The translations under genes and the position numbers were made by a program. Below the pieces are notes generated by a model that was given only the letters and a program-made list of their open reading frames with translations, was not told the origin of the DNA and did not search any database. Below are positions 6,189 through 64,000 of a stretch of DNA of 64,000 bases, piece by piece. Numbering within the stretch: the first letter of the stretch is position 1; each line of letters opens with the position of its first letter. The stretch is from Victivallales bacterium (GTDB lineage: Bacteria > Verrucomicrobiota > Lentisphaeria > Victivallales > JAUVCU01). The DNA lies in contig JAOZMT010000001.1 in NCBI GenBank assembly GCA_029934175.1, forward strand, positions 19,286-83,285, written 5' to 3'.

Positions 6189-6209
6189 ATTTGATTGGGA
6201 GGATTAGAA

Positions 6210-30708: not shown

Positions 30709-31416
30709 TTATTTTTTTCCATTGAGAGATTCCTTTAATAAATCAACAAGACTTGTTGCTACCTTTCCATTTTTCTTTTTAGCCCTTTTCTTTCTATTTG
30801 TCAAATCTAAGGCTACCTGTTTTATAAATTCTCCCTTGTCAAAAAATGTGTATTCTTCCTTGTTTTTTTCCTTTACAATTCTATCAAAAAGTTCTTTTTC
30901 TTTTTTTGTCACTTTTACTTTTGGAATTTCAATTTTGATATCCCTAATTGGCCTTATCCGTGCCATGAGTAACTGTCCATCAGATGGAAATACAACAACA
31001 TTAGTTATGTTTCCTCTTAAAATCATATGGCCTAACCATTTATAATTAGCTATTAGACTTATCAATTTATCATCTTTTTCTGCTTCCAATAGATATAACT
31101 CACCCGCAAAAAGCAATGGATTGATTTCTTTTATTGTTTTAATCAAATTGATTACTTTGCCTTCATGCTTTAGCTGATTCAAATCTTCTTTATCAAAGAA
31201 AACTAACTTTTCATCATCTAATTTGATTCCTTTCAATATCTCTGTAACTTCTTTTCCACAATTTCCACAAACCTTAACATATCTCACTCTTTCTTTGCAG
31301 CAAGATGAATATTCATGAAAAACATTTCCATTAATGTCTTCATTTAATTTGTAAACGCCAACATTAGTACTTATTAAATCATTTACCTTAATTTTTAATG
31401 TTGCTATCTTTTTCAT
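30709..31416 (-). CDS. ku: Ku-like DNA end-binding protein
   Basis: Colinear with bacterial Ku (for example B. subtilis YkoV). The matches are VRYVKVCGNCGKEV..ILKG (vs IKYEKVCTNCEKTL..IVKG), FFDKEDLNQL, INLIKTIKEINPLLF and LLMARIRP.RDI. GGAGG RBS. Confidence 0.8.
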   Translation of the reverse strand: MKKIATLKIKVNDLISTNVGVYKLNEDINGNVFHEYSSCCKERVRYVKVCGNCGKEVTEILKGIKLDDEKLVFFDKEDLNQLKHEGKVINLIKTIKEINPLLFAGELYLLEAEKDDKLISLIANYKWLGHMILRGNITNVVVFPSDGQLLMARIRPIRDIKIEIPKVKVTKKEKELFDRIVKEKNKEEYTFFDKGEFIKQVALDLTNRKKRAKKKNGKVATSLVDLLKESLNGKK

Positions 31417-31464: not shown

Positions 31465-33182
31465 GCCTTGCTTAAAATTTCATTTAAATTTTTGACATAG
31501 GCATCAAATGTTGGAGAAAGATATTTTTTAAAATACCTCATTAGTCTTGGAATATGTATTTTTCCCACTTGATCTAGAGCCAACTTTTTCCTTATCAATA
31601 AAAATATAATGTTTTGATTGTAACCAATCATTTTATCTATTCTTTCTAACTCATAAGGATAAAAATGCATATCTGTTAGAATTATAAATAATTTTTCATC
31701 GCTATCATTTAATCTATTTATTTCTTGCTCAACTTTGCTATATGAAGTTCCACCACCAACATCTTTGAAAAATTCTTCTACATTTCCTTTTTTATTCCAT
31801 CTATATACTTTAGTATTGAATTTATAAAGTTCAAAATTATCCAAATCAGCATTTTTCTTAAAGGCTTTGACTGTTATTATCGCCCATTTGATTTGTTCAG
31901 GTGTCATGCTACTGCTTATATCAACAAAAAGATAAATCTTCTTTTCTTCCGCTTCAATAATTTCCATTTCAAATAAATTTGTAATATCTTTAGTAAACCA
32001 ATTTTCTAATTCATTGGTTAAATGGATACCATTTTCAAGCTTTTGCCTAACTTCCTTTGGAATTATCTTTATTTTTTCTATACTCTCTTCATTCTTTTTG
32101 GTTAATCTTAAATTCCTATAATCATATATAGTTCTAAACAAATTAGTAATATCTTCAAAGCCTACGTTTCCGTTAACCATTGTTCTGTTAACGCTTGCCA
32201 ATTTATATTTTAATTTATTAGCTTTCTTTCTTATATCTTCAAATTTAGAATAGCTTCCTATTTCCAATAGTTTGTAAAGGTCAAGTAATTGTTCACTGAT
32301 TTTAATATTAAATGCTCTTTCAAATTCGTCTTTTGAAATTAATTTATCTTCAAGATTTTGTTCCAATAAACGATTAAGTAATACTTTATATTGACTAACT
32401 TGTGTTCTAATTTGCAAATTTTTTGATGGATCTTGTTTTTCATCCATTTCAGCTTTTACCACTGCTGCAATTTTTTTCAAATCTTCTTTTTCTTCTTCTG
32501 TAAATAACTGACTTTTGTTTATATCTGTATTAGTTACAATTTCTTTTGACTTTTTCTTTCTTTCTTTTGGAATTTCAATTTCCAAAAATCCTAAAATGTC
32601 ATGTGCAAGTTCGATTTCTTTATCTATGGACAATTTTTTAAATCTTAAAAAGTTTATAGCTTTACCAAACTTTTTGACTATTTCATAAGCAATTGCTTTT
32701 GCTTGATTATCAAAACTAATATCTGGATAACAATAGTATAGATAAAGATGTAACAACACATTTATATACAAAGGATTTTTCTTAAAGGCTTCCAAATTAT
32801 CTTCAATTACCTTTCGTGTAGCAAAATATCTAATTTTAGCCAAATTAGTATCTTTTAACTCCTTTTCCATCAAAGTTTTAGTATCAACTTTAATATCTTC
32901 TAATACATTAACAGTGAATTTTAATGCACTTGAACATCTATTTGCCAATTTCATTTGATAAGATACTGGCGTATATAAGATATGCGCTCTTTCATGGAAT
33001 AATAGGTGTAATAGAATTTGCCTATTTGCGTCATCAATTTCTGCATTTAAATATTTTTCAGGAATATAGATAATTCTTTCTTTCAAATCGGTTTTTGGTG
33101 TATCTTTTGTGGCTATTATGTTTACATCTTCACTTTTAGTAAATGTATTAAAGATATATCTTAGACTTTCTAAATTATTCAT
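31461..33182 (-). CDS. metallopeptidase-like + vWA domain protein (DUF2201-type partner of AAA+ ATPase)
   Basis: N-terminal HExxH (LFHERAHILY). C-terminal MIDAS elements DISSSM, GGGTSY and ILTDMH. Its start overlaps the AAA+ gene stop (ATGA). Confidence 0.75.
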   Translation of the reverse strand: MNNLESLRYIFNTFTKSEDVNIIATKDTPKTDLKERIIYIPEKYLNAEIDDANRQILLHLLFHERAHILYTPVSYQMKLANRCSSALKFTVNVLEDIKVDTKTLMEKELKDTNLAKIRYFATRKVIEDNLEAFKKNPLYINVLLHLYLYYCYPDISFDNQAKAIAYEIVKKFGKAINFLRFKKLSIDKEIELAHDILGFLEIEIPKERKKKSKEIVTNTDINKSQLFTEEEKEDLKKIAAVVKAEMDEKQDPSKNLQIRTQVSQYKVLLNRLLEQNLEDKLISKDEFERAFNIKISEQLLDLYKLLEIGSYSKFEDIRKKANKLKYKLASVNRTMVNGNVGFEDITNLFRTIYDYRNLRLTKKNEESIEKIKIIPKEVRQKLENGIHLTNELENWFTKDITNLFEMEIIEAEEKKIYLFVDISSSMTPEQIKWAIITVKAFKKNADLDNFELYKFNTKVYRWNKKGNVEEFFKDVGGGTSYSKVEQEINRLNDSDEKLFIILTDMHFYPYELERIDKMIGYNQNIIFLLIRKKLALDQVGKIHIPRLMRYFKKYLSPTFDAYVKNLNEILSKA

Positions 33183-34303
33183 TTTATTGTCCTTATTTTA
33201 GTTGTTATTGCCGATTCTTTTGGAAGTTCACCTACAAGCCATCTCCACCAATCATCTTCAATTATTATGTCTTTTTTCATTTCTTTGTAATAATCTTTTA
33301 ATTTATCTATTGTTTTTTCTACTTTTTTCTTTTTCTCTTTCTCTTCTTCTTTAAGTAGTAACGTTTGCAACTTTTTCATGGCTTCGTCTTCTTCATTTAG
33401 CATTGCCTTATTTACAAAGGCAATTTCAAATGCTTCTTTTTTACTAAATCCAATATCTCGCAGTGATTGATATTGTTTTATAGTTCTAATACTGTACATG
33501 GTACGCATTTCGTTTCTATTAATCATTTTGACTGCTTCAATATAAAATCTTAAGATATCATCTTCAATCTTAAATTTTGTTGATAACTCTTTATCTGTAA
33601 AATGTGGAAATTTAATTATGATTAATCTATCTAGAAAAGCTGCATTAAAATTATTCGTACCGATATATCTCATATTTTTTTGGTTACATGCAAAAGCAAT
33701 TCTACATTCAGGATGAATTTTAACAGTTTTTCTAAGCTCAGGTATAAATAAGCTTCTATTTTCTGTCATTTCGTGAAACCTAAATGCAGCTTTGGCTGGC
33801 AATGCATTTATTTCATCAAATAAAATTAAGGATGGATTTTGTAGAAAATCAACCATTAATCCTGCTTCAAATGTAGTTTCATTATTTCTAATTTCCCTAA
33901 ATCCCAACAAATGATTAAATTTACTATTATCATCTAGACTTATTATTAAGCATGGCAAATTATGCTTGTAAGCATAATATCTGCAAGCATAAGTTTTTCC
34001 TGTGCCAGTTTCGCCAACCAAGAGTGCCATCTTATTAGCTTCCAAAATAGCATCCAACTTATTATCTATATCTCTGTGAATATAGTCTTTAAATTCGTCT
34101 TCATTTGGGATATAGACGTCTAATGGTTTAGAATGTACTTTACTTAAATGTTCATATGCTTCTTTTTCTTTGATGAATTTTCTATTGATAAGGCTGACTG
34201 TTGATTGACTAATGTTTAACTCTTCTGCTATATCCTTTTGTTTATAACCTTTTAATAGCATTTCTATTATTTTTTCCCTTTTTTTCTCTTTTATTTTTTT
34301 CAT
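33179..34303 (-). CDS. HTH-fused AAA+ ATPase (AAA_5 / MoxR-CbbQ-CobS-like)
   Basis: N-terminal sigma-r4/LuxR-like HTH (KQKDIAEELNISQSTVSLINRKF). Walker A VGETGTGKTY and Walker B LILFDEINA. GGAG RBS and ATGA coupling on both sides. Confidence 0.8.
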   Translation of the reverse strand: MKKIKEKKREKIIEMLLKGYKQKDIAEELNISQSTVSLINRKFIKEKEAYEHLSKVHSKPLDVYIPNEDEFKDYIHRDIDNKLDAILEANKMALLVGETGTGKTYACRYYAYKHNLPCLIISLDDNSKFNHLLGFREIRNNETTFEAGLMVDFLQNPSLILFDEINALPAKAAFRFHEMTENRSLFIPELRKTVKIHPECRIAFACNQKNMRYIGTNNFNAAFLDRLIIIKFPHFTDKELSTKFKIEDDILRFYIEAVKMINRNEMRTMYSIRTIKQYQSLRDIGFSKKEAFEIAFVNKAMLNEEDEAMKKLQTLLLKEEEKEKKKKVEKTIDKLKDYYKEMKKDIIIEDDWWRWLVGELPKESAITTKIRTIK

Positions 34304-36272: not shown

Positions 36273-37028
36273 TTACATTAAATAATCATTCTTTAATAGA
36301 AAGTCAATATATGTTTTCAAAGATTCTTTATAAAAGTTTTGTGTATCTAATTTCACTATTCCTGGTGCAGTATTAACATCTAATACCCAAATGATATTAT
36401 CATCATCGATAGCAATATCTATGCCTGCAAAATCTAATCCACAAGCCAATAATGCTTTTTTAGCCATTTGACTTATTTCTGGAATATTATCAATCTTTCT
36501 AAATTCATATCTATTTATTGCAGAATTTCTTATAATAAATGTATCATGTTTAATATCTCTAGGTATTTTCTCATAAGTCAAGTAATTAAATTCTTTGTTT
36601 GATAACTTAGATATATGAACTCTAAACTCTCTGGCTATTGGAATACATCTGCTAAAAATGGAAATTTTAACTTTTCTTTCTTTAATAATTTTAAGATCAT
36701 GCCTAGACATTAATAAAATTATACCATTCCCACCTTCACTATAATTTTTATATGCATAAATGGGAAAGTTATCTGCATTCAAACAATAAGGCGTTCTAAC
36801 CCTATTCTTTTTCATATAATAATAAAATAATCTCCTATTCTTTGCCACTTCAATAGCAAAGGCATTATTGATTTCAACATGTATAGTATTTATTTTTTTA
36901 GTGCTATTTCCAAATCTAATAATAATATCTTCATTTTTCAATAAGCTATCACTATTGCCATATGTATAATTACAATCTAATAAACTTGCCAATTTTTCTC
37001 CACTTTCGTTACTTGTTAGCACCATCAT
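36273..37028 (-). CDS. ATP-grasp ligase (RimK-like)
   Basis: PIYAYKNYSEGGNGIILL, REFRVHI, IIRNSAINRYEF and the C-terminal AKKALLACGLDFAGIDIAID..IIWVLDVNTAPGI follow the RimK/ATP-grasp motif order. Confidence 0.7.
   Translation of the reverse strand: MMVLTSNESGEKLASLLDCNYTYGNSDSLLKNEDIIIRFGNSTKKINTIHVEINNAFAIEVAKNRRLFYYYMKKNRVRTPYCLNADNFPIYAYKNYSEGGNGIILLMSRHDLKIIKERKVKISIFSRCIPIAREFRVHISKLSNKEFNYLTYEKIPRDIKHDTFIIRNSAINRYEFRKIDNIPEISQMAKKALLACGLDFAGIDIAIDDDNIIWVLDVNTAPGIVKLDTQNFYKESLKTYIDFLLKNDYLM
36279..36307 (-). promoter_or_regulatory. conserved early promoter TTGACT-N13-TGATTATTT
   Basis: The - strand reads TTGACTttctattaaagaaTGATTATTT. It overlaps the 3' end of the ATP-grasp gene. Confidence 0.6.
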
Positions 37029-37314
37029 CTTTCAACTCCTTTTCTATTTCCTTTTTTATTCTATCCATTTCCTTTTGGAATTCATTGCCATGTCCTTTGA
37101 CTTTCAAATGTGCTAATTCATGTGCTAGCGTTTCAATAACATCTTCTTCTTTTTTTGCATATTTGGCGTTTAATAGAATTTCTATACCATTAGTTTGGAG
37201 ATTCCTAGTGCAAACTCCTCTAATGTTTTTATCCAATTGTGTACTAATATGAATATCTACTTTCTCTTTGGTTATCTTTTCAGCTATTTCTTTTAATTTC
37301 ATCCACCTTAACAT
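37009..37314 (-). CDS. SprT/WLM-like zinc metalloprotease (minimal)
   Basis: HELAHLKVKGHGNEF fits the HExxHxxxxxH zincin motif. 101 aa. Confidence 0.6.
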   Translation of the reverse strand: MLRWMKLKEIAEKITKEKVDIHISTQLDKNIRGVCTRNLQTNGIEILLNAKYAKKEEDVIETLAHELAHLKVKGHGNEFQKEMDRIKKEIEKELKDDGANK

Positions 37315-37315
37315 A

Positions 37316-38005
37316 TTAATTCTCCTTAATTGGAACTAATTTACCTGTTTTATTGTCTATTTTATATTTTTTTACATGATTGCTATGATGATGACCATAT
37401 CCATAACCTCCATATTCATAGCCGCCACCATATGTATAAACTTTAGTTCCAAAATAAGAAGCATTACTAAAATAGATTCCTTTCTCTTCAATAAAATTAC
37501 CATATAGTATTAGCTTATATGGCAAAAGTATAATAAATTTACCAGTATCAATAGTTTCCATGTAGTTTAAACCCAAAATACTCAATAAAGTTGCAACAGC
37601 TCTACTATCTGAGAACTCTCCATCAGGGAATTTAATCCCTTTTCTTATGCAATAATAAGCTACTAAGTTTAATTTTTCTCTCCAATTTGATATCACTCCA
37701 TTATGGAATAAAACACCTTTTCTAGTTTTGCCTTCAAGTGGATTTTCTAGACTGATCTTAAATGGATGCGTTAATTCTGGAGTTTTCCCACCAGATGTAC
37801 CTGTTCTAAAATGTACAACATGTGGAAAATGACTAAAATCTTTGTAAAATTCCTTAAAGCTTTCCAAATTCATAAATCCTTTCTTGAAATATACTAATCC
37901 TTTCTTTTGCCATCCTATGCCTATTCCATCACTGTTTGTGATGAAACAGTTTTTTAGCTCTTCATTATTTAACTTTCTATATTTGCAATAAGCTATTATA
38001 CACAT
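37316..38005 (-). CDS. class II (Ntn) glutamine amidotransferase-like protein, copy 1
   Basis: The start was moved to the RBS-supported ATG at 38005 (GGAGGttaaaATG). That gives MCIIAY, with the Cys2 nucleophile typical of Ntn amidotransferases. Most positions are identical by eye to ORF 47011-47694. Confidence 0.7.
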   Translation of the reverse strand: MCIIAYCKYRKLNNEELKNCFITNSDGIGIGWQKKGLVYFKKGFMNLESFKEFYKDFSHFPHVVHFRTGTSGGKTPELTHPFKISLENPLEGKTRKGVLFHNGVISNWREKLNLVAYYCIRKGIKFPDGEFSDSRAVATLLSILGLNYMETIDTGKFIILLPYKLILYGNFIEEKGIYFSNASYFGTKVYTYGGGYEYGGYGYGHHHSNHVKKYKIDNKTGKLVPIKEN

Positions 38006-38006
38006 T

Positions 38007-39494
38007 TTAACCTCCAAAATTTATTTTGATATATCTCCTTAATGGTTTGAATATTTTTGCAACATCATCCAAGTTTTGCCTTAAGTGCCATGCAATTCCA
38101 ACTTTGCGTTTATCATTTTCAGTATATGTGTGAGATATGCGTTTGTAACCTTTAACTCTAATTCCTGACGTTACTTTTCCTCTATTTTCTCTCAATCCAA
38201 ATAATACTAACTTTACTGGCTTTTTCAATCTTAATGTTTTTGCCCAATCTGCTACTTTATTTGCAATTTTGTGATTCCATTCGTCTGCAAAGATAATTTC
38301 CAAAGGAAATGTCTTTTTTCTTCTTGTGTTATTTAACTTAAGTTTCCAAAATTGGAGAATGCTATATGGTGGTTTTGGCGGATTATTTATGAATTCTAAA
38401 AACATTGCGGCTTCTTTTCGTGTTAATTTTGCTATTTTTACATAATCATCCTCAGTTGGTGGATCATTGTATTCTATTTGCTTTCCCTTTGTAGCCAATT
38501 TGGTTAAGTTTTTTATAATCTTCATTGAGATTCTGGCGATTTCTGGATGTGCAAAGATAGCCGCACTTGGTGTACGATATTCAAAACCCCAGTCTTTAGT
38601 TTCAAAACTAGATAGTTCACCGTAACCTTCTCTATAACATAATCTGTTCGTTCTCTTTCCTAAAAAGTCATCATAAGCGGTTAAAAGTGGATATGATGGC
38701 GTAACAGGTTTAACTTTTGTACCAAACTTAAATCCTACATGAATATGTCCACCTAACGGCGCTTCATTTGCAATTTGAACATCAAACCCATCGTCTTTAA
38801 CCCGCTTTAATAATCGCTTTATGTTACTTATTACGATTCTAGGATTTGATGATGGATCTGGTCTTAATTCTAGCTGTGTACCAGCTCCATCACAACCTAT
38901 TGGATTTTCTAAGCTATCGTATACATCTCTTGCCCTTACCCAAGTATTTCTCCTTATCATAAATTCTGGATCACATCCTAAAGTAATATCAATTTTTACT
39001 TTTGGATTTTTGGCCTTTTCTACTTTGCAATTTGGCCAATTAGTATCAATGCCTAACACTCTTACTATTGCCTTCAATGCCTTGTATGCGTGTGTTAAAT
39101 TATCATATTTGTGAGTAAAATCAGTTAATAAAAGTACCTTGTGTTTAGGTAAATAATGTCCAACAAAAATTCCATTAATTTTTAACTTGATTGTATCTAC
39201 AATCTCAAAGCCAGTAAAATTATTTGTCCAATCATGGAAAATGCTTACTTGATTAAAAAATTCATCATCTATATGAATATCAATCAAAGCAAAGGGCCTA
39301 AGTCTTATCCCATTATTTTCTGCATAGATATAAACACTAAATGGTGAGTCAAGCCAAGCGGTGCAATGATTTGCAAAAAGTCTTATATATGGAAATTTCT
39401 GTGCGTAACGCCTAATAAATGATGGCAAAGCTTCAGATGGACTTCTTACGTATCTAGCCCTATCTCTTGTCAATTCTAATCTTAGTCTTTTCAT
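38007..39494 (-). CDS. glutamine-synthetase-fold carboxylate-amine ligase (Amidoligase_2-like), copy 1
   Basis: Ordered motifs GCDPEF, GCDGAGTQLELRP, GGHIHVG and WGFEYRTPSA resemble the metal/ATP ligand pattern of GS-like amidoligases. Paralogue of 45557-46996. GGAGG RBS. Confidence 0.55.
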   Translation of the reverse strand: MKRLRLELTRDRARYVRSPSEALPSFIRRYAQKFPYIRLFANHCTAWLDSPFSVYIYAENNGIRLRPFALIDIHIDDEFFNQVSIFHDWTNNFTGFEIVDTIKLKINGIFVGHYLPKHKVLLLTDFTHKYDNLTHAYKALKAIVRVLGIDTNWPNCKVEKAKNPKVKIDITLGCDPEFMIRRNTWVRARDVYDSLENPIGCDGAGTQLELRPDPSSNPRIVISNIKRLLKRVKDDGFDVQIANEAPLGGHIHVGFKFGTKVKPVTPSYPLLTAYDDFLGKRTNRLCYREGYGELSSFETKDWGFEYRTPSAAIFAHPEIARISMKIIKNLTKLATKGKQIEYNDPPTEDDYVKIAKLTRKEAAMFLEFINNPPKPPYSILQFWKLKLNNTRRKKTFPLEIIFADEWNHKIANKVADWAKTLRLKKPVKLVLFGLRENRGKVTSGIRVKGYKRISHTYTENDKRKVGIAWHLRQNLDDVAKIFKPLRRYIKINFGG

Positions 39495-39843: not shown

Positions 39844-40506
39844 TTATAACCAAATCCCATAATTAAATGTAAAATTGATTTTATTTCCATTCTTATTCTT
39901 TTGTGCAATTTCTCTATCTTTCTTTTTGATTTTTATCCAATCTACATGCTGACCATCTGTCCATACACTATTTTCATTTCTAACAATTAGCCCTTCATAT
40001 CCCAATTCGTATATCCACTTTTTAATCAACTGCTGCAATTCTTTCCAATCCATAACCATCCACATTGGTGCAATTCTTAAATGCTCAAAATGTTCTGTTA
40101 ATTTAGTATAATGACTAAAATAATTAAAAGTTTGCCTAGCATCAAAATTAGTTCTATCTAATTTTTGCAAAATCCCAAATAAAGCTAGATTCAAATCATC
40201 GCTAGCCTTGTTTCTTAGTAATTGATAAAAATCTTCTTTTGTTCTTCCTGCGCCATAGTATAACTCTGCCAAATAGATTCCATCTGGAAGGTTTAATTTT
40301 TTGAATTCATGCAATGCTGGATAATCCAATCTATATCTGCCGTATTTATCTTTATTAACGCTAAATACTGTATCCTTTCTTTTGATAATATATTGTAATT
40401 CACCGTCTAGTTTCAAAGATACATAACATGGAAATTTAATATTATGCTTTGACCCTCTAAATTTACATAATGGAAGCTTATAGTTCTTCTTGGAGAATGT
40501 TTTCAT
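39844..40506 (-). CDS. minimal ATP-dependent DNA/RNA ligase (nucleotidyltransferase domain only)
   Basis: Motif I SLKLDGE, motif III GIYLAELYY, motif IV YEGLIVRN and motif V DWIKIKKK. Only ~30 aa follow motif V, so no OB domain is apparent. The start was moved to the GGAGG-supported ATG at 40506. Confidence 0.7.
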   Translation of the reverse strand: MKTFSKKNYKLPLCKFRGSKHNIKFPCYVSLKLDGELQYIIKRKDTVFSVNKDKYGRYRLDYPALHEFKKLNLPDGIYLAELYYGAGRTKEDFYQLLRNKASDDLNLALFGILQKLDRTNFDARQTFNYFSHYTKLTEHFEHLRIAPMWMVMDWKELQQLIKKWIYELGYEGLIVRNENSVWTDGQHVDWIKIKKKDREIAQKNKNGNKINFTFNYGIWL

Positions 40507-40681
40507 TTTTACCTCCATAAATTTCATCGGCTTCAATCTCTATATATAATCTCCTATACAACTGATATAATTTCCAATGTTTCAAGTTTAAATCGTTCCT
40601 ATTTAATTGGTCCTCAATCTCTTTTTCATAAAATTTTACAAATGCACAAGTCATTTCCTTGTATGTTTGCTTTCCATTCAT
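40478..40681 (-). CDS. hypothetical protein
   Basis: The start was moved to the ATG at 40681 (GGGAGG RBS). Confidence 0.5.
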   Translation of the reverse strand: MNGKQTYKEMTCAFVKFYEKEIEDQLNRNDLNLKHWKLYQLYRRLYIEIEADEIYGGKNENILQEEL

Positions 40682-44630: not shown

Positions 44631-44658
44631 TAATAATTATTTTAAACATGAAAGTCAA
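44631..44658 (-). promoter_or_regulatory. conserved early promoter variant TTGACT-N13-TAATTATTA
   Basis: The - strand reads TTGACTttcatgtttaaaaTAATTATTA. It overlaps the stop of ORF 44642-45031. Confidence 0.5.
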
Positions 44659-45031
44659 TAGTTACCTTAAACTTTTTAACAATTTTCCAAAAGTCCTGTT
44701 TATCCTTAAAGAAAAATAAATATTTATGCCATTCTTTTTCTTGACCTAATGACCAAGGTTTTGTTTCCATTCTTATGGAATATTTTTTTAAACAAAGAAA
44801 AAAATTAGATGATTCTTTATTTTTAGTTTTTTTAACTTTTAAAGTGCCATCCCATAAATTTCCTGTTATTTGTTCTAAATCATAATTTATATAGTCATCA
44901 AATGATCCAAAAGCTGCTTTAATAAACATACACATGTCACCAAAAAATGGCATTAAATCATATCTGGCCTGATCATGTTCTTTTATGATGAAAACCTTTT
45001 TTCCAATTTGTAGATTGTAATAAGATGCCAT
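44642..45031 (-). CDS. hypothetical protein, first gene of the leftward arm
   Basis: 129-aa ORF with a GGAG RBS, directly downstream of promoter 45051-45078. Confidence 0.65.
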   Translation of the reverse strand: MASYYNLQIGKKVFIIKEHDQARYDLMPFFGDMCMFIKAAFGSFDDYINYDLEQITGNLWDGTLKVKKTKNKESSNFFLCLKKYSIRMETKPWSLGQEKEWHKYLFFFKDKQDFWKIVKKFKVTIDFHV

Positions 45032-45050
45032 TTAAATCTCCTTTTCTTCT

Positions 45051-45078
45051 TAATAATCATTTCAAATATAAAAGTCAA
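45051..45078 (-). promoter_or_regulatory. conserved early promoter TTGACT-N13-TGATTATTA (leftward)
   Basis: The - strand reads TTGACTtttatatttgaaaTGATTATTAagaagaaaaGGAGatttaaATG. Confidence 0.7.
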
Positions 45079-45094
45079 TAGGAAAAGATAATGA

Positions 45095-45490
45095 TTAGAT
45101 AGACCTAATTTTTGCTGATTTTATCAATATTGTATTTGTGACTAAATCAACAATTTATTTTTTTGCCCATAAATTTGGGAAAAAAGAAAAGTTTGGATTC
45201 ATATTTTCCGAGAAAAAATTCATTTGCACTTCAAATAGAAAAGATTCGAGAAAAAGAAAATTTTTTGATTGAAAGGAAAAAGTTAGATGTTTCAAACAAT
45301 GTCTCATAAAACAAATTTAGTTGCACTTCAAATAAGAAAAGTTTTAATATTTTATTTTTTCTAAAGAGCAAGAGAAAGTTAGGTCTGCCAAAGTATCTTA
45401 GATTGGCCTAACAATGCATGGCGGGACTAACAATTAAATCTATGTCGAGAATTAGGTCTATCTAACATTGGCAATTGGACCTAATCGTAC
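45095..45490. repeat. iteron-like repeat cluster A in the divergent control region
   Basis: Copies of GTTAGKYC / RGNCTAAY in both orientations: agacctaat 45101, aagttagatg 45280, aagttaggtc 45376, ggcctaac 45405, ggactaac 45424, attaggtc 45451 and ggacctaat 45478. In addition, TTGCACTTCAAATA(A)GAAAAG occurs twice, at 45224 and 45321. Confidence 0.7.
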
Positions 45491-45500
45491 AAAGTGGGTA

Positions 45501-45528
45501 TTGACTGTAAGACCAATAATGATTATTT
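45501..45528 (+). promoter_or_regulatory. conserved early promoter TTGACT-N13-TGATTATTT (rightward)
   Basis: TTGACTgtaagaccaataaTGATTATTT. It lies inside the track's GTG-started ORF, which argues for the ATG at 45557 as the true start. Confidence 0.7.
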
Positions 45529-45556
45529 ACATCTTAGATTTAGTTTGGAGGTGATC

Positions 45557-46996
45557 ATGCAGAAGGTAGTCAAGCTAAAATTAGAGAATTCTTTTGATAC
45601 AAACGGTGCGGAGGCCTTGCCTAAGTTTTTAAGGACTTATGGCAAGGCTTTTTCTTTTATTAGAGGTTTTTATAATCATAGGGCTATAGATTATAAGTCA
45701 AAATCTGTTTATATATACCCTTATACCAGTATAACATATTGGTATTCTATAGTTATCCATTTTGATATTGATCTCCAATTTAATGGAGATCAAGAGGAGC
45801 TATTCTATGATTTAAGCTTAAACTATGCTTATAACAACATTAGTGATGGAATTTTAATAAAAAACAAAGGCAGGGTAATTGGCTATTATGATTTGAGATA
45901 TCAAAGATTGATCCTAAGTGACATTACCCATTATGATGATGAATTATATCTAAAAAATGCTTATATTGTTTTGAAAGCAATTACAAGATTTTTTAACTTA
46001 AAAAAGTTATGGCAAAGGAAATATATAGATATAACTGTTGGCTGTGATCCAGAATTTTGTTTGGTTGATAGATATGGTGATATTGTACATGCCAATGATT
46101 ACATTGACGATGATTATGGTGAAAATGAAATAGGTGTAGATGGTAGCGGAGATCAGTTAGAGCTTAGACCTGCACCAGGTACACCAAACCAGGTTATAAA
46201 TAACCTAAGAAGCTTGATCAAGCAAGTAAAAGAGGCAGGTTTTGGCATGGCGTTGACCGCTGATTTTAGTTTAGGCGGACATATTCATTTTGGTTTGGGT
46301 GGACAGGTGCATCCATCTAGAAGCTTACTAGATGTATTAGACGATTTTATTGGCATACCAACAAGGCATATGTGCGCCAGATATGGCTATGGTGCGCTAA
46401 GTAGTTATGAAACTAAGGAGTGGGGTTTTGAATATCGTACACCAAGTGCGGCTATCTTCTTATTTCCTAGCATTGCTAGGATAATTCTAAAATTGGCTAA
46501 AAATATAGTAGCAAAGGCAATAAAAAATCAAACGATTGCATACAATAATCCTCCACTATTAGAAGATTATGTAAAATTAGGTCTAACTAAGAATGAGGCC
46601 CAAAAACTATTAAATTTTTACAGCACCAAAAACTATTTGGGCTATAATGTGATTGGATATTGGCTAAATAATAAAAGGATGTATCAAAGAAAAACCTACC
46701 CATTGACATTGGAATTTGAGGATAGATGGAGCTTCTATACAAAGAAAAATCTCTTAGAATGGGCAAAGCATATGAAACTAAGAAGACCCATCACTTTAGT
46801 GTTATACGGACTTATGGAAAGTAGAGGAAAAGTGAACACGATAAAAATACCAGGGTATGGCGTAATACAACATGAGAAGAGTGAAAGTAGCGGCGGCTAT
46901 GCCATTGGTATATGTTATGACTTAAGGCAAGGCGCTAATGATTATAAGATTATTAGGGCAATTAGGAAATATTTAAGGGAAAAATTTAAGGTGTAA
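45557..46996 (+). CDS. GS-fold carboxylate-amine ligase (Amidoligase_2-like), copy 2
   Basis: GGAGG RBS then the ATG at 45557. Motifs GCDPEF, GVDGSGDQLELRP, GGHIHFG and WGFEYRTPSA. Colinear paralogue of 38007-39494. Confidence 0.55.
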   Translation: MQKVVKLKLENSFDTNGAEALPKFLRTYGKAFSFIRGFYNHRAIDYKSKSVYIYPYTSITYWYSIVIHFDIDLQFNGDQEELFYDLSLNYAYNNISDGILIKNKGRVIGYYDLRYQRLILSDITHYDDELYLKNAYIVLKAITRFFNLKKLWQRKYIDITVGCDPEFCLVDRYGDIVHANDYIDDDYGENEIGVDGSGDQLELRPAPGTPNQVINNLRSLIKQVKEAGFGMALTADFSLGGHIHFGLGGQVHPSRSLLDVLDDFIGIPTRHMCARYGYGALSSYETKEWGFEYRTPSAAIFLFPSIARIILKLAKNIVAKAIKNQTIAYNNPPLLEDYVKLGLTKNEAQKLLNFYSTKNYLGYNVIGYWLNNKRMYQRKTYPLTLEFEDRWSFYTKKNLLEWAKHMKLRRPITLVLYGLMESRGKVNTIKIPGYGVIQHEKSESSGGYAIGICYDLRQGANDYKIIRAIRKYLREKFKV

Positions 46997-47010
46997 AAGG
47001 GGGTAAAAAT

Positions 47011-47694
47011 ATGTGTATAATTGCTTACTGCAAGGAAAGAAAATTAAATTATAGTGAATTAACAAATTGCTGGTGTAATAACAATCATGGTGTCGGTGTA
47101 GCATGGCAAAGCAAAGGATTTGTTCACTTTAAAAAAGGATTTATGGAATTAAACGATTTTAAAGCATTCTATGATAAGTTTAATCATATTCCGCATGCTG
47201 TGCACTTCCGCACACAGACAAGTGGTGGTGTTTGCAAAGAATTAACTCATCCTTTTGTATTGGACTTTAAAAATCCTTTAGAAGGTAAAACTAAACAAGG
47301 CGTTTTATTTCATAATGGTATAATAACCGATTGGAGATCAAAGTTAGACATAATAGCTTATTACTGCATAAGAAAAAATAAAAAATTTCCTGTAGGTAAG
47401 ATGAGTGATAGCAGGGTAATGGCTATTTTAGTAAAGATTTTAGGCACGGGATATCTTGAATCTATAGCGGCTTATGATAGATTTTTGATTATGCGGCCTA
47501 ATGTTGTCACTTTATTAGGAGATTGGATAAAAGAAGATGGGATTTATTTTTCTAATTTAGATTATGAAGACTATAGTATCCTTTACAATAATACCGATTA
47601 TGATGATGATTTAGTCAGTTGTAGTTTTGGCTTTGAATGGGAAAAAACAAAGAAAAGGAGAAAGAAAAATGATAAAAGTTATCACAAAGTATAG
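47011..47694 (+). CDS. class II (Ntn) glutamine amidotransferase-like protein, copy 2
   Basis: Begins MCIIAYC. Colinear with 37316-38005 (HFRT.TSGG...ELTHPF, NPLEGKT..GVLFHNG, YYCIRK, SDSR, GIYFSN). Confidence 0.7.
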   Translation: MCIIAYCKERKLNYSELTNCWCNNNHGVGVAWQSKGFVHFKKGFMELNDFKAFYDKFNHIPHAVHFRTQTSGGVCKELTHPFVLDFKNPLEGKTKQGVLFHNGIITDWRSKLDIIAYYCIRKNKKFPVGKMSDSRVMAILVKILGTGYLESIAAYDRFLIMRPNVVTLLGDWIKEDGIYFSNLDYEDYSILYNNTDYDDDLVSCSFGFEWEKTKKRRKKNDKSYHKV

Positions 47695-48997: not shown

Positions 48998-49210
48998 ATG
49001 ATAAAAGATTTGATCTTTAGGTGTAAAAAATGTAAGGCATTAAATGAGGTGTTAGATGCTAAAGATAAAGTTAGATGTGACAGGTGCGGCTTAGTGCACG
49101 ATTTGAGTGATTTGTTTAATGAAAAAGTGATAAAGGAAAAGGTAATTACCACAGAGATTTTTACCATAGATGGAAATTGCTTAAAAATAATAGAAAGGGA
49201 AAGGAGGTGA
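48998..49210 (+). CDS. zinc-ribbon protein
   Basis: CKKC .. CDRC. AGGAGG RBS. Confidence 0.6.
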   Translation: MIKDLIFRCKKCKALNEVLDAKDKVRCDRCGLVHDLSDLFNEKVIKEKVITTEIFTIDGNCLKIIERERR

Positions 49211-50963: not shown

Positions 50964-50983
50964 GAAAAAGTAGGCGGCTTTTT

Positions 50984-51015
50984 GCCAAGGGCTTATTGTC
51001 CTTGGCATTTTTTTA
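50984..51015 (+). terminator. rho-independent terminator
   Basis: Stem GCCAAGG / CCTTGGC, a 9-nt loop, then ATTTTTTTA. Confidence 0.75.
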
Positions 51016-51128: not shown

Positions 51129-51134
51129 TGACAA

Positions 51135-51460
51135 TGTTTGATGGGCCTAAGTTTTCTGCCCAGAAAAAATTAGGTCTATTTAAGTTAGTTCAATTTGACA
51201 AAGTTTGTTTGGCCTAACTAAGTTAGTTCCACAAAACAAAGTTAGTTCGCTTCAATAAAGTTAGTTCAGTGGAACTAAGTTAGTTCGACCTAACAAAGTT
51301 AGAAAAAAAAACATAGTTCACTTCAATGAAAGTTAGTTCAATCTAACAATGTTTGTTAGGCCGAACTAACTTAGTTTGGCCTAATTAACTTTTTAAGACG
51401 GAACTAAGAATTTGTTCCAGAAAAGTTAGGCCTATCTAAGATTGTCTATTGGAACTTGTC
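51135..51460. repeat. iteron cluster B, including an array of AAGTTAGTTC with a 19-bp period
   Basis: AAGTTAGTTC starts at 51182, 51220, 51239, 51258, 51277 and 51330, and 51220-51277 are spaced exactly 19 bp apart. A degenerate unit is at 51296. Palindromes GAACTAAGTTAGTTC (51271) and GAACTAACTTAGTTT (51363) are present, along with GGCCTAAS copies. Confidence 0.85.
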
Positions 51461-51484: not shown

Positions 51485-51512
51485 TTGACAAGGTAAAAAA
51501 TGATGATTATTA
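51485..51512 (+). promoter_or_regulatory. conserved early promoter TTGACA-N13-TGATTATTA
   Basis: TTGACAaggtaaaaaatgaTGATTATTA, upstream of the ArdC-like gene. Confidence 0.65.
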
Positions 51513-51540: not shown

Positions 51541-52458
51541 ATGAATAAGGTCTATCAAATAGTCAATGAAAAGATTTTGGAAGGTCTCCGTCAAGGTCAA
51601 ATACCTTGGCGCAAGCCATGGGCTGTTAATGATATCCTTACTTTCCATAGAAACGTTATAACTAAAAAACCCTATAGAGGAATAAACGTAATTTTACTTA
51701 GTTTGGCTTGCCAAAAAAATAGAGATTATCGTAAGTTATGGCTAACATATAGGCAAGCCAAACAATTAGGAGGTTTCATCTATAAAAACAGCAAGCCTCA
51801 ATTAGTGGTTTATTGGAGCTTATACATTAAACTAAATGGTAAGCTTGTAAAACTACAAGATATACAAGATTTTATCGATGATAATGAAGATAAGGAAATA
51901 ATACCAATTTTAAGATACTATAATGTTTTTAATGTTGCTAACTTAGGACCTGATGATTTAAGAGAAAAAATCATTAAAAAATTTGACAATATAGCTAATA
52001 ACACCAAAAAAATTAATCCTATCAATAGGGCAGAAAAAATTATCGAAAAGTATATTGATAAGCCTCCAATTTATCAAGAAGATATTGACAAAGCTTATTA
52101 TTCATTATTAAGAGATGAGATTCACTTGCCAAAAAGAGATTATTTTATTAGTGCGGAGGAATACTACTCTACCCTATTTCACGAAATGGTGCACTCTACT
52201 GGACATCCCAAACGTTTGGCAAGATTAAATAGCAATTATACCCATGAGGACTATAGTCTTGAGGAATTAACTGCCGAAATAGGAAGCGCTTACTTGCTAA
52301 ATATAGCTAACATTGACATTGAGGCAGTTACCAAAAACAACATTGCTTATATACAAAGTTGGTATAAGCAATTAAGTAATAATCCTAAATGGATAACTTG
52401 GGCCGCTAGTAGGGCCCAAAAGGCAGTTGATTACATTTTAGGCATAAAACAAGATTAA
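51541..52458 (+). CDS. ardC: ArdC-like antirestriction protein (ssDNA-binding N-domain + zincin metalloprotease)
   Basis: N-terminal WRKPW, YRGINVILL and TYRQAKQLGG. C-terminal HEMVHSTGH and EELTAEIGSAYL. AGGAGG RBS. Confidence 0.8.
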   Translation: MNKVYQIVNEKILEGLRQGQIPWRKPWAVNDILTFHRNVITKKPYRGINVILLSLACQKNRDYRKLWLTYRQAKQLGGFIYKNSKPQLVVYWSLYIKLNGKLVKLQDIQDFIDDNEDKEIIPILRYYNVFNVANLGPDDLREKIIKKFDNIANNTKKINPINRAEKIIEKYIDKPPIYQEDIDKAYYSLLRDEIHLPKRDYFISAEEYYSTLFHEMVHSTGHPKRLARLNSNYTHEDYSLEELTAEIGSAYLLNIANIDIEAVTKNNIAYIQSWYKQLSNNPKWITWAASRAQKAVDYILGIKQD

Positions 52459-52470
52459 AAAAAATTAAAT

Positions 52471-52508
52471 GGCATAGGAAATTTTAAAAATCCTATGCCA
52501 TTTTTTTA
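52471..52508 (+). terminator. rho-independent terminator
   Basis: Stem GGCATAGGA / TCCTATGCC, an 11-nt loop, then ATTTTTTTA. Confidence 0.8.
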
Positions 52509-52553
52509 TGCAAAAATCGTTCACTATGCAAAAATTATGCCAATATGCAAAAA
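52507..52553 (+). repeat. three direct TATGCAAAAA repeats (18-19 bp period)
   Basis: Starts at 52507, 52525 and 52544. Related ATGCAAAAAA copies occur at 54377 and 55937. Confidence 0.7.
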
Positions 52554-52588
52554 CTATGCCACGATAGAATATTTTAATAATGTTTAGT

Positions 52589-52840
52589 GGACCTAACTTT
52601 TGTGGAAAAAATCCTAGGCCGCTTCAATAAAGTTAGTTCACTTCAATAAACTTAAAGCACTTCAATAATGTTAGGTCGGCCTAACATTCTCCAAAGAAAG
52701 TTAGATTATGTAAAAAAATGTCAAGATTGCTAAACAAAGTTAGGCCCAGAAAACTTTGTTAGACGGCCTAAGAATGTCTATTGGAACTAACAAAGTTAGT
52801 CCAGGCATCTTCCGAACTAACTTTGTCTAATGGGCCTAAC
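52589..52840. repeat. iteron cluster C, including 3 x 19-bp tandem units CTTCAATAA-N-GTTAGKYC
   Basis: Units at 52622-52640, 52641-52659 and 52660-52678. Additional GTTAGKYC / RGNCTAAY copies and the near-palindrome GGAACTAACAAAGTTAGTCC are present. Confidence 0.85.
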
Positions 52841-52989
52841 ATTTGACAATTTATTATACTTTTGTGTCAATTTTGGCATATGTGTCAATTTAACACGCAC
52901 ACAACATAAGTATATTAAAGATATCCTTAATATATCTATGTTTTAATGTTGGCATAATGTTTGCATTAAATCCTAAGTGGGAGGCAAGG

Positions 52990-53497: not shown

Positions 53498-53680
53498 ATG
53501 AAATTGATAATTAAAGGCTTAGGATGGAATACAAGCTTAAATGTTAGGATTCATAATAAAGACGTAGTGATTAATAAAAACGATTTTGAAAAATTCTTAA
53601 AAATCTTAGCTTATACCCACGATATCATAAGTGGGGGGTTTGACTATGAATTTAAGGAGGTGATGAATAATGAAAAATAA
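53498..53680 (+). CDS. hypothetical protein
   Basis: 60-aa ORF with an AGGAGG RBS. Confidence 0.55.
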   Translation: MKLIIKGLGWNTSLNVRIHNKDVVINKNDFEKFLKILAYTHDIISGGFDYEFKEVMNNEK

Positions 53681-54011
53681 AATTTATATGTTAAATGCTA
53701 TTAGTCTTAACTTAGTCAATACTGATAAAGTAGATTTTTTTATGGTGAAGACGTCAATTGAAAGTGCCAAGGAATGGATGAAAGGAAAAACGGCTATTAG
53801 TGCTGTACGTCATGATCTCCAACACTTTGCTAGGGAAATAGCAAAGGATGCAAAGGAGTATAAAGAGGTTTCTGAGTTAAAGCTTGATACACCAATGGCT
53901 TATAATACCGTGGTAATACAGTATAAAGGTCCTAGATTGCCAGAAGGTGCAACAACATTGCCTCCTAATGCCAAATTGGAAATTTGGGAAGGTATCATTA
54001 GAGTATATTAA
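53670..54011 (+). CDS. DUF1874 / STIV-B116-like protein
   Basis: The pattern IYMLNAISLN .. ISAVRHD.. .. VVIQYKGPRLPEGATTLP resembles the DUF1874 family (G.RLPEG motif). The call comes from motif recall only. Confidence 0.45.
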   Translation: MKNKIYMLNAISLNLVNTDKVDFFMVKTSIESAKEWMKGKTAISAVRHDLQHFAREIAKDAKEYKEVSELKLDTPMAYNTVVIQYKGPRLPEGATTLPPNAKLEIWEGIIRVY

Positions 54012-54018
54012 ATTTTAA

Positions 54019-54057
54019 TTGGCATAGGGTTATTAATCCCTATGCCAATTTTTTTTT
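54019..54057 (+). terminator. rho-independent terminator
   Basis: Stem TTGGCATAGGG / CCCTATGCCAA, an 8-nt loop, then T9. The stem shares the GGCATAGG core with terminator 52471. Confidence 0.8.
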
Positions 54058-54091
54058 GTTCTGATTCATTAACTATATGGGAATCTTAAAT

Positions 54092-54346
54092 GTTAGGCCG
54101 ACCTATTATTTTAAATTTAAATGTCTAATTGACCTAATTTATGCCACTAAAATATAGTTAAACTCTACATCAAATAAAGTTAGGTCTATGCTAAATATTA
54201 AATTTAATATTTCTGTCTCACTAGACAATGTTAGATAGACCTAACAATTCCAGAAAAGGTAGGTGAATAAAGGGAAATAAAGCAATTGGCATGATTATTG
54301 CATAAGAAAATGTTAAGATATCTAAACAACGTTTAATGGGCCTAAC
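54092..54346. repeat. iteron cluster D
   Basis: gttaggccgacctat 54092, tgtctaattgacctaat 54122, aagttaggtc ~54178, gttagatagacctaac ~54229 and cgtttaatgggcctaac 54330. Confidence 0.7.
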
Positions 54347-54650
54347 ATATGCAATTTCCGTGCCAAGATAAACTGCATGCAAAAAATGTGCCAAAAGCAA
54401 AAAAACATTGGAAAAATGGGCGTTTTTTTCAGAAGTGCACGGGGGGCGGGCTGGCGACTTAGGCTCATTCTAAAATATATTTCATTTTTCCATTTTTTCC
54501 CTATTTCTTTTTTTTCTAGAACCTTTTCCAATTATAAATACATACTTGCCCACCAGAATGATGGGCAAGTGGAGGCATGGAGATGATGAAGGTGGCTAGA
54601 GAGCTATATATATTATAATACTTAATTTTCAAAAAGTCAATACCTTAATA

Positions 54651-54722
54651 TTAATCACTACCATATACGAAAATTAGAATGAAAATTAAAAGACATACAT
54701 ATGCTGTTATTGCTTCTGTCAT
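54651..54722 (-). CDS. 23-aa hydrophobic micro-protein (MTEAITAYVCLLIFILIFVYGSD)
   Basis: Not in the track. GGAGT RBS 8 nt upstream. Tandem paralogue of 54764-54838. Confidence 0.4.
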   Translation of the reverse strand: MTEAITAYVCLLIFILIFVYGSD

Positions 54723-54763
54723 ATTTTATCACTCCTTTTTTTAATTTTTAAAAAGTCCTTGAA

Positions 54764-54838
54764 TTAATCATTGCCATATATGAAAAGTAAAATTAAACCA
54801 TATATAAAAAGTAAAATTAAGATATATGTTTCTATCAT
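54764..54838 (-). CDS. 24-aa hydrophobic micro-protein (MIETYILILLFIYGLILLFIYGND)
   Basis: Not in the track. GGAGT RBS 7 nt upstream. It starts 20 nt downstream of the tRNA 3' end. Confidence 0.4.
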   Translation of the reverse strand: MIETYILILLFIYGLILLFIYGND

Positions 54839-54857
54839 TTTTTTACTCCTTCTTTAG

Positions 54858-54947
54858 CGGAGGGAGCAGGATTCGAACCTGCGAGAGCCCTTTTGGGACT
54901 CCAGCGGTTTTCAAGACCGCCGCCTTTAACCACTCGGCCACCCCTCC
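54858..54947 (-). tRNA. tRNA-Ser (anticodon UGA)
   Basis: The reverse complement folds as a cloverleaf.
- Acceptor stem GGAGGGG/TCCCTCC (one G-U).
- D arm GCC-GAGTGGTTAAA-GGC.
- Anticodon stem GCGGT/ACCGC with loop CTTGAAA.
- Long variable arm.
- T arm GCAGG-TTCGAAT-CCTGC.
- Discriminator G; no encoded CCA. Confidence 0.93.
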
Positions 54948-55754: not shown

Positions 55755-55755
55755 T

Positions 55756-55857
55756 TTAAAATCTCCACCAAAAAAGTAAAAAATCTAATACTTCGTCTCC
55801 TGTTATTGTATCATCATCATTTGTATCTTTTAATATTTTTTCTTCAAAATTTTTCAT
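55756..55857 (-). CDS. 33-aa acidic micro-protein with a hydrophobic tail (MKNFEEKILKDTNDDDTITGDEVLDFLLFWWRF)
   Basis: Not in the track. AGGAG RBS 8 nt upstream. Its stop lies 1 nt before the next start. Resembles 58672-58782. Confidence 0.45.
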   Translation of the reverse strand: MKNFEEKILKDTNDDDTITGDEVLDFLLFWWRF

Positions 55858-55885
55858 TTAGAAACTCCTATAATCTTTTCTTATA

Positions 55886-55913
55886 ATATAAGCATTATTT
55901 CGGCTTATGTCAA
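55886..55913 (-). promoter_or_regulatory. promoter TTGACA-N13-TGCTTATAT (leftward)
   Basis: Same architecture as the conserved early promoter. Divergent from the promoter at 55980. Confidence 0.55.
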
Positions 55914-55979
55914 GTCTTAATTTTGATATTGACTTTATGCAAAAAATAATTTACATATTAGAAAAAAAATTATAGACTA

Positions 55980-56007
55980 TTGACTTTTCGATTAGAAATG
56001 ATTATAT
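55980..56007 (+). promoter_or_regulatory. conserved promoter TTGACT-N13-TGATTATAT (rightward)
   Basis: TTGACTtttcgattagaaaTGATTATAT. A second TTGACT at 55929 lies upstream. Confidence 0.6.
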
Positions 56008-56028
56008 TTTATAAAAAAGGAGGTTAAA

Positions 56029-63837: not shown

Positions 63838-64000
63838 ATTCTTCCTCCCAATACTCATCAATTTCCTGTTTTATTTTTATTTTTTCTTTTTTTCTATCGT
63901 ATTTAATCTTATTTTTATGAATCATCGTACCTTTATATGGTTTTTCTTCTGGAATCCTACTTCTTTTTAAAATTTTAACTAAATGTTCTCTTCTATTAGT
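63830..64000 (-). CDS. partial ORF running in from the right window edge (C-terminal 56 aa)
   Basis: The frame is open from nt 64000 to the TAG at 63830-63832. It overlaps the lysin start. Lys/Glu-rich. Confidence 0.35.
   Translation of the reverse strand, partial: TNRREHLVKILKRSRIPEEKPYKGTMIHKNKIKYDRKKEKIKIKQEIDEYWEEEYE

Follow-up and report, generated by a model that had tools for sequence, protein, structure and literature searches.

Candidate operator sites and a conserved non-coding block between divergent promoters of a phage-like metagenomic contig

The 64,000-nucleotide stretch of contig JAOZMT010000001.1 analysed here (hereafter, the window) contains at 45032-45556 a 525-bp intergenic region that divides the minus-strand gene 44642-45031 from the plus-strand gene 45557-46996. 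With approximately 30% GC, the window resembles a tailed-phage segment, and the region looks like part of an uncultivated tailed phage. A hub for transcription control is the most likely reading of the region, which is not a demonstrated origin of replication. More specifically, we place about even confidence in the sequence-based proposal that it holds the operator sites of a phage regulator that would control both central promoters, the promoter of the anti-restriction gene ardC, and adjacent arrays of sites. The initial annotation of the window had described a divergent-promoter region with iteron-like and A-tract repeats as a candidate origin or regulatory switch. All features that it listed are present at their coordinates, subject to three caveats concerning the number of sites, the AT content, and tandem repeats. 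The analysis yields a promoter consensus, a candidate operator of 14-16 bp, and a small regulon that includes ardC, providing handles on gene regulation in a phage lineage known from metagenomes only.

Promoters and sites of the central intergenic region

The features of the region, from left to right, are the following.

45052-45078 (minus strand): leftward promoter P_L, identified by pattern match, with TTGACT at 45078-45073, a 12-nt spacer and ATGATTATT at 45060-45052; gene 44642-45031 is downstream
45095-45110: candidate operator O_L, TTAGATAGACCTAATT, containing a full TTAG-N6-CTAA site; exactly 16 nt lie between its end and the P_L -35 downstream of it
45111-45370: conserved non-coding inner block, with a 28-bp palindrome, T7-GCCCATAAATTTGGG-A6, at 45158-45186 and an old duplication of approximately 97 bp
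45224-45243 (plus strand): TTGCAC repeat copy 1, TTGCACTTCAAATAGAAAAG, with the small palindrome TTTG-CACTT-CAAA as its core; invariant in 8 relatives
45321-45341 (plus strand): TTGCAC repeat copy 2, TTGCACTTCAAATAAGAAAAG, preceded by a degenerate half-site, TTAGTTG
45378-45431: variable middle sub-cluster, consisting of GTTAGGTC (45378-45385), the full site TTAGATTGGCCTAA (45398-45411) and GGACTAAC (45424-45431)
45450-45485: composite candidate operator O_R, AATTAGGTCTATCTAA at 45450-45465 followed by the proximal half-site GACCTAA at 45478-45484
45501-45527 (plus strand): rightward promoter P_R, with TTGACT at 45501-45506 and ATGATTATT at 45519-45527; the COOH-NH2 ligase gene 45557-46996 is downstream

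The leftward and rightward promoters claimed initially both fit the strict pattern TTGAY-N13-16-TGATTATT. This pattern occurs 9 times in 64 kb, compared to 0.21 times expected, a number reached by none of 100 shuffles, and its orientation agrees with that of the genes in all 9 cases. A generic sigma-70 scan misses this nine-member family because the -10 element reads TATTWA. A tenth, slightly variant promoter, TTGACT-N12-AATGATTATA, is present at 55981-56007 within a second divergent intergenic region (55755-56028) that has no TTAG sites.

The sites in the region, their enrichment, their conservation and their spacing are observed directly. For the motif GTTAGKYC, the window has 31 copies where 3.0 are expected, with 26 of them inside four intergenic clusters at 45378-45431, 51184-51432, 52590-52840, and 54092-54346. 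For the 7-mer core TTAGKYC, the density is 26.9 per kb within the clusters versus 0.56 per kb outside, a 48-fold difference. An equal density in coding DNA, which the initial annotation had named as speaking against its proposal, is therefore not what is seen. The motif is a half-site; the full site has the form TTAG-N6-CTAA and is present 16 times in the window versus 2.3 times expected. An alternative basic site, TTAG-N2-CTAA, was discarded, with 1 copy found and 2 expected. The count of at least 8 motif copies given previously for the spacer depends on stringency: the strict consensus yields 3 and the 7-mer core 6, while approximately 10 are obtained once degenerate half-sites such as TTAGATA and TTAGATT are included.

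The arrangement of the sites relative to the promoters is precise. O_L is a perfect 16-nt inverted copy of 45450-45465, so that the pair brackets the spacer, and the nearest site upstream of the -35 hexamer has its CTAA end exactly 16 nt away, at P_L as well as at P_R. The string attaggtctatctaacattggcaattggacctaat (45451-45485), which had been noted as motif copies packed against the rightward -35, is indeed there and is nearly invariant in relatives. Measured between TTAG start positions in the window and in the related contigs L012 and L008, adjacent half-sites are 13, 17, or 32 bp apart when head-to-head, 2 or 6 bp when tail-to-tail, and 15, 19, 23, or 38 bp when in direct orientation; these preferred spacings suggest cooperative binding in multiple orientations. 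TTAG sites close upstream are a feature of just three of the nine promoters, namely P_L, P_R, and that of ardC (P_ardC); the internal promoter 42601 has one full site. As so few of the promoters carry them, the sites mark a regulon and are not a promoter component.

The three remaining clusters are larger and lie further to the right.

51133-51446: cluster 2, with 16 TTAGKYC half-sites, including a 19-bp tandem array at 51198-51302, and inverted O-type sites at its bounds
52580-52850: cluster 3, with 10 half-sites and a 19-bp array at 52622-52674, between ardC and a five-gene operon of small open reading frames (ORFs)
54085-54350: cluster 4, with 5 half-sites, including the third copy of the TTAGATAGACCTAA site at 54231-54244, downstream of the terminator at 54017-54050

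Cluster 2 sits between a terminator (50983-51007) and the ardC promoter (51485-51511), which it directly precedes, and its promoter-proximal part is 69% identical to 45387-45488, giving P_ardC and P_R a common upstream module of approximately 100 bp. Predicted terminators precede clusters 2 and 4, and inspection of the sequence shows a comparable hairpin ahead of cluster 3. Tandem Repeats Finder (TRF) identified genuine 19-bp tandem arrays built from the TTAG half-site (unit approximately AAAGTTAGTTCGCTTCAAT) at 51198-51302, 51355-51391, and 52622-52674; TTGCAC copy 1 of the central region resembles the portion CACTTCAATAAA of the unit that is repeated in clusters 2 and 3. The most iteron-like sequences of the window, these 19-bp arrays, flank ardC and not the region at 45032-45556. 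Inverted O-type sites (consensus GACAATSTTWGATRGGCCTAA) are located at the array bounds, and each array consequently folds as one large hairpin as single-stranded DNA, with z-scores of -7.7 and -4.7 in the window and -5.6 and -7.3 in relatives. These scores are not independent evidence for a hairpin function, because any motif present in both orientations yields them.

A second repeat family, TATGCAAAAATTATGCCAA, is present at 52507-52561 with a 19-bp period and 2.9 copies, and the terminator hairpins near 52471-52499 and at 54017-54050 use one common stem, GGCATAGG/CCTATGCC. Together, this repeat family and the reused stem suggest duplicated cassette boundaries.

Conservation of the candidate operators and the inner block

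The relatives used for comparison are contigs from hydrothermal-type metagenomes in which the right-hand gene has 56-96% amino-acid identity, and the intergenic region is retained in about ten of them. P_L is kept in all relatives compared. Across about ten genomes, O_L and also the composite O_R (TTAGGTCTATCTAACATTGRYARTTRGACCTAATC) show almost no change, while the flanking protein is only 56-65% identical; one relative, L136, has a 2-nt change in O_L. The 16-nt spacer between O_L and P_L is constant in length and variable in sequence. Between O_R and the -35 of P_R, the lineage of the window has 16 nt and the others have 26 nt, due to an exact 10-bp indel that corresponds to one helical turn, and the 10 extra bases complete an AT palindrome, TATTAAAATTTTAATAT, which also precedes the ardC promoter. 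The TTAG sites in the middle have been gained and lost: they are absent in L136, shortened in L134 and L138, and expanded in L012, and a 19-bp deletion has removed from the window a further central site that most relatives have.

The inner block is conserved as well. Over the left 320 bp, the three deepest lineages have 84-88% nucleotide identity, a range that also holds for the inner block against L012 and L008, compared to 70% for the flanking gene and 77-80% for the next gene, and an alignment of eight sequences gives a mean column identity of 86% for the block. It is present in one copy per genome and is limited to this clade; more distant phages bearing an amidoligase were considered as sharing the architecture and were set aside, as their layout differs. 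Exact-word scans of IMG/VR with the 16-mer operator and the 14-mer TTGCACTTCAAATA returned single chance matches only. The two copies of TTGCACTTCAAATA(A)GAAAAG noticed initially, approximately 97 bp apart, are found at 45224-45243 and 45321-45341 and form part of the old internal duplication. In L140, a 51-bp deletion removes TTGCAC copy 2, which is therefore dispensable there. The conservation of this 260-bp block exceeds that of the genes beside it, and the block is located at a recombination junction, making it a clear target in the search for a cis-acting function, whether as an origin, an architectural element or something else.

The block might owe its conservation to exchange itself. 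At least four unrelated first genes adjoin the same P_L across the relatives. In addition, L140 is, by sequence comparison, a clear recombinant with its junction within the intergenic region, near 45345-45440. When L140 5634-6279 is compared with the window (44917-45562), the left gene and the block are 97% window-like and the right gene is 56% identical. The block could then be a homology linker for recombination among related phages, with no function beyond its promoters and operators. We consider this quite unlikely, since the three deepest lineages are 79-88% identical over approximately 300 bp versus 70% for the neighbouring gene (nucleotides), and variable patches alternate with invariant stretches of 40-100 bp in a footprint-like manner. 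Moreover, recombination alone does not keep a sequence unchanged in the absence of selection or very frequent exchange.

The same high nucleotide conservation, together with a stem around TTGCACTTCAA that has two-sided changes in three related sequences, could point to a small non-coding RNA or a micro-protein encoded in the block, but we regard this as extremely improbable. The fold z-scores are -0.33 for the plus strand and -0.71 for the minus strand, the RNAalifold covariation terms amount to only -1.4 and -0.9 kcal/mol, Rfam gives no match even at E <= 1, and a scan for an internal promoter or terminator found none. With regard to a micro-protein, the statement of the initial annotation that the spacer of approximately 420 bp has no credible ORF holds: every frame contains stops, both here and in the related contigs, and no codon position is favoured by the substitutions, which lack 3-nt periodicity. 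A structured RNA and a small ORF were both rejected on the basis of fold z-scores, covariation, Rfam, stops, and periodicity.

Models of regulation and candidate binders

In the reading that we favour, a pair of nearly identical sigma-70-like promoters would drive outward transcription of the two arms. A dimeric protein that recognises a specific DNA sequence would bind with high affinity to the palindromic operator TTAGGTCTATCTAA (general form TTAG-N6-CTAA), positioned at a fixed distance upstream of each -35. Between O_L and O_R, the weaker and evolutionarily fluid sites would be bound by this protein too, as would the three larger arrays around ardC and the small-gene operon, each placed after a terminator and ahead of the next transcription unit. 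Binding would co-regulate this promoter subset, with a shut-off of early and anti-defence expression as the likeliest outcome, although activation from about -58 and -83 would fit the geometry equally well. The inverted boundary operators may be bridged. Binding of a protein to the sites, the identity of that protein and the sign of the regulation are what we infer from the sequence features.

Several of these features are those expected of a dispersed-operator regulon under a global regulator such as KorB, omega, or P1 C1. The sites recur at P_L, P_R, P_ardC, and two further arrays and are depleted elsewhere, and their position relative to the promoters is kept in relatives (16 nt at P_L; 16 versus 26 nt at P_R). 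The helically phased, conserved site distances at both -35 boxes, the module shared with the ardC promoter and the near-invariance of the operators bear out the earlier suggestion of a regulatory control region.

The repressor-controlled switch, also proposed initially, is not supported when taken as a lambda-type switch. Divergent promoters with shared inverted operators are in place, but the other features of such a switch are not. There are no CI/Cro-like flanking genes: the right-hand gene encodes an amidoligase, and for the left-hand gene no family match was obtained, with unrelated genes taking its place in relatives. No integrase was found among the proteins scanned, and the sites do not overlap the -35 or -10 elements, ending at least 16 nt upstream of each -35.

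One known parallel is the central control region of Bacillus phage phi29, where the promoters A2c, A2b, and A3 are governed by p4 and p6. That system also is a divergent promoter region of a lytic phage with inverted-repeat binding sites upstream, and its multi-site nucleoprotein complex sets early and late timing. By contrast, the phi29 spacer is 219 bp, versus approximately 420 bp here, the conserved block has no phi29 counterpart, and there is no sequence or protein homology. The IncP plasmid RK2 has a KorB/KorA network with 12 palindromic OB sites, TTTAGCSGCTAAA. As in RK2, a single replicon carries one short palindrome with TTAG...CTAA-like arms in several of its promoter regions, with the -35 following at different distances, and the regulon includes establishment genes. 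Unlike in RK2, no ParB-family protein was found among the scanned proteins, the sequence and the N6 spacer differ, and dense arrays of 5-16 half-sites take the place of single operators; this is a likeness and does not establish membership. The omega repressor arrays of pSM19035/inc18 are similar in having short sites in direct, head-to-head, and tail-to-tail orientation upstream of several promoters, with repeat numbers that differ between promoters. However, omega binds contiguous 7-bp heptads, whereas the half-sites here are 7-12 bp and are arranged on a 19-bp lattice, and the ribbon-helix-helix (RHH) gene found beside the arrays in relatives is absent from the window.

A number of observations weigh against transcription control as a full account of the region. 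First, the operators stop short of the -35 boxes on their upstream side and leave the promoters themselves free, so simple steric repression is not implied. Second, the O_L-O_R distance varies from 301 to 395 bp, i.e., 28.7-37.6 turns with mixed fractions and no constant helical phase, which weakens a looping model; strict looping phase between the two operators is unsupported, and bridging, while possible, is likewise unsupported. Third, the 260-bp inner block is more conserved than an operator model requires, and this conservation is accounted for by none of the models discussed here. Fourth, the arrays, with 10-16 sites on a 19-bp lattice, resemble iterons or centromeres as much as operators. 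Finally, there is the question of the binder. Pfam and PHROG scans of the small proteins near the arrays gave no match to a DNA-binding family, with one weak exception (53670-54011, a weak STIV B116-like match) that is not universal among relatives. An RHH gene is located beside the arrays in four relatives, but the window has no orthologue, and for this reason the RHH protein was rejected as a universal binder. The RHH-like gene, of 61 amino acids, is at 13778-13963 (minus strand) in L012, with homologues in L140, L141, L138, and L010. Should the region be an operator set only, it would represent ordinary, though neatly resolved, phage promoter control, i.e., a known kind of element in an unstudied lineage.

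The only clear helix-turn-helix (HTH) domain that is clade-wide belongs to an HTH-AAA_5 ATPase (33179-34303). This protein is 79% identical to its L008 homologue, with the HTH conserved, which fits an unchanged DNA motif and, as a sequence correlation, proves nothing. Its homologues are either approximately 80% identical, or approximately 36% identical and without the HTH, with none of intermediate divergence. One could combine the TTAG-N6-CTAA sites, the arrays on the 19-bp lattice with their inverted operators at the bounds, and the inner block into an undescribed multi-locus nucleoprotein switch operated by an ATP-driven HTH-AAA_5 oligomer. In such a scheme, the lineage-specific HTH-AAA_5 fusion would assemble on the site clusters in the manner of DnaA or enhancer-binding proteins, and the central promoters and the ardC and anti-defence cassettes would be silenced or fired en bloc, possibly coupled to replication start in the conserved block. 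We consider this scheme improbable.

Replication, DNA architecture, and the phage setting

The initial annotation also raised the possibility of a replication origin. Here the TTAG sites would be iterons bound by an initiator, the other three clusters would have auxiliary or handcuffing roles, and divergent transcription would open the inner block, where replication would start. This would agree with the grouping of half-sites into several clusters that follow a 19-bp lattice and include genuine tandem arrays (51198-51302 and 52622-52674), with the conservation of the non-coding block above coding level, and with the position of the region at the cumulative GC-skew minimum. Furthermore, scans of the proteins encoded elsewhere in the 64 kb revealed neither a DNA polymerase nor a known initiator, so that the origin is unplaced. 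As a specific model, however, an origin at 45032-45556 does not hold up well, and we consider it unlikely. The skew is uninformative: its sign follows the coding strand in 7 of 8 blocks and is near zero in the eighth, and the minimum at 45 kb is therefore not independent evidence. The AT-rich tracts noted initially are present, but with 72.2% AT versus 70.3% for the window, the region is barely richer. An intrinsic bend from phased A-tracts was considered and rejected (10-11 bp power at the 25th-62nd percentile of the window).

There is also no distinctive AT-rich unwinding element. The least stable 100-bp window of the region is at the 97th percentile and is not a duplex-stability minimum; the stability maximum of the region is at the 89th-99th percentile, with many less stable windows elsewhere and far less stable stretches at 4.1, 22.3, 54.6-54.8, and 55.9 kb. 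As for the iteron-like repeats, TRF finds no tandem array within 45032-45556 and no tandem direct repeats of 17-22 bp; the 19-bp arrays are in the other clusters only. The adjacent genes encode the amidoligase, a 227-aa protein, and small proteins without a family match, with no initiator (Rep, O, or DnaA-like) or helicase loader among them. The conserved distance between the sites and the -35 boxes is needed for promoter regulation and not for an origin, and no promoter reads into the block according to the generic sigma-70 scan.

Known origins provide only partial parallels. In lactococcal phage c2, the origin is the intergenic region between divergent early and late transcription, and it needs an ori transcript; the location between divergent transcription units is shared, whereas in the region studied here no promoter reads into the block. 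P4 ori/crr, P1 incC/incA, and SPP1 oriL/oriR are iteron origins with satellite clusters, and several clusters of one short repeat, some with a 19-bp periodicity, are found here too. In contrast to all four systems, the region has no AT-rich unwinding element, adjacent initiator gene or tandem array. If the window holds an origin, then cluster 4 and the very AT-rich stretch at 54.6-54.85 kb come closer to the textbook.

Further features are found next to cluster 4. A GC-rich island, cacggggggcgggctggcgac (54430-54600), and a hairpin with a 12-bp stem (54544-54570) stand out in the 30% GC genome, and are followed at 54600-54830 by the least stable and most AT-rich DNA of the window, including a 24-bp tandem repeat at 54774-54827. 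The island and the AT-rich stretch adjoin cluster 4 and a tRNA-Ser (54857-54947, minus strand). As an origin candidate of the textbook kind, 54430-54830 is the better one, or it is possibly an unannotated RNA.

A role in DNA architecture or segregation would place the emphasis on the arrays. These would load, or nucleate, a protein resembling ParB/KorB or omega that spreads or forms bridges and compacts, insulates, or partitions the phage DNA, and promoter regulation would be a side effect. Such a role would agree with dense arrays between inverted O-type sites that can be folded as giant hairpins, with the tolerance of all site orientations, and with the way in which the arrays bracket whole transcription units. 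However, ParA, ParB, CbiA, and RHH-centromere proteins were not found among the window proteins scanned or in the gene lists of L008 and L012, there is no sign of a plasmid lifestyle, and strong hairpin z-scores come automatically with a motif in both orientations. On balance, we regard an architectural element as a long shot, and return to operator sites of a phage regulator as the preferred reading.

The genes of the window are in line with its phage-like character. Those that define the setting are listed below.

32-2014: tape-measure-like protein, structural
6195-16301: single ORF for a 3368-aa DUF2341/BNR protein in which DUF2341 occurs three times, together with several BNR/sialidase-like repeats; presumed to be a giant adhesin or tail fibre
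33179-34303: HTH-AAA_5 ATPase
38007-39494 (minus strand) and 45557-46996 (plus strand): two paralogous phiEco32-like COOH-NH2 ligases
51541-52458: ArdC, anti-restriction
63286-63861: GH108 lysin, lysis gene

The divergent arms encode, in addition, a Lon-like AAA+ protease, a SNF2 helicase, three DNA methyltransferases, and a DruA-like protein, and one arm has a Ku homologue and an ATP-dependent DNA ligase (30709-31416 and 39844-40536). No DNA polymerase, initiator, integrase, or partition protein was detected among the approximately 75 window proteins scanned. Megablast and blastn gave no nucleotide match in GenBank phages or PLSDB plasmids, and no relative was found in GTDB genomes by DNA pattern or protein profile.

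The stretches 36273-39494 and 45557-47694 contain the two paralogous COOH-NH2 ligases, an ATP-grasp enzyme, and a small protein (37009-37314) with metalloprotease-like PHROG matches, the L008 counterpart of which is SprT-like. The ligases, the ATP-grasp enzyme, and their associated proteins may constitute an early-expressed system for peptide or base modification, with one ligase opening the right arm. The match of the 227-aa protein near the region to gamma-glutamyl cyclotransferases is faint and non-significant. A Mu-like transposable phage, suggested by Ku, the HTH-AAA+ protein, and the missing polymerase, was considered and set aside. A neighbouring protein of 573 aa has no match in the PDB and, in PHROGs, matches only a C-terminal HNH endonuclease. 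The small protein at 48998-49210 has weak matches to archaeal-type DUF5817/DUF5816 and to a TFIIB-like zinc ribbon, and these archaeal-type weak matches, at 48998-49210 and 53670-54011, contrast with the bacterial-looking promoters and lysin.

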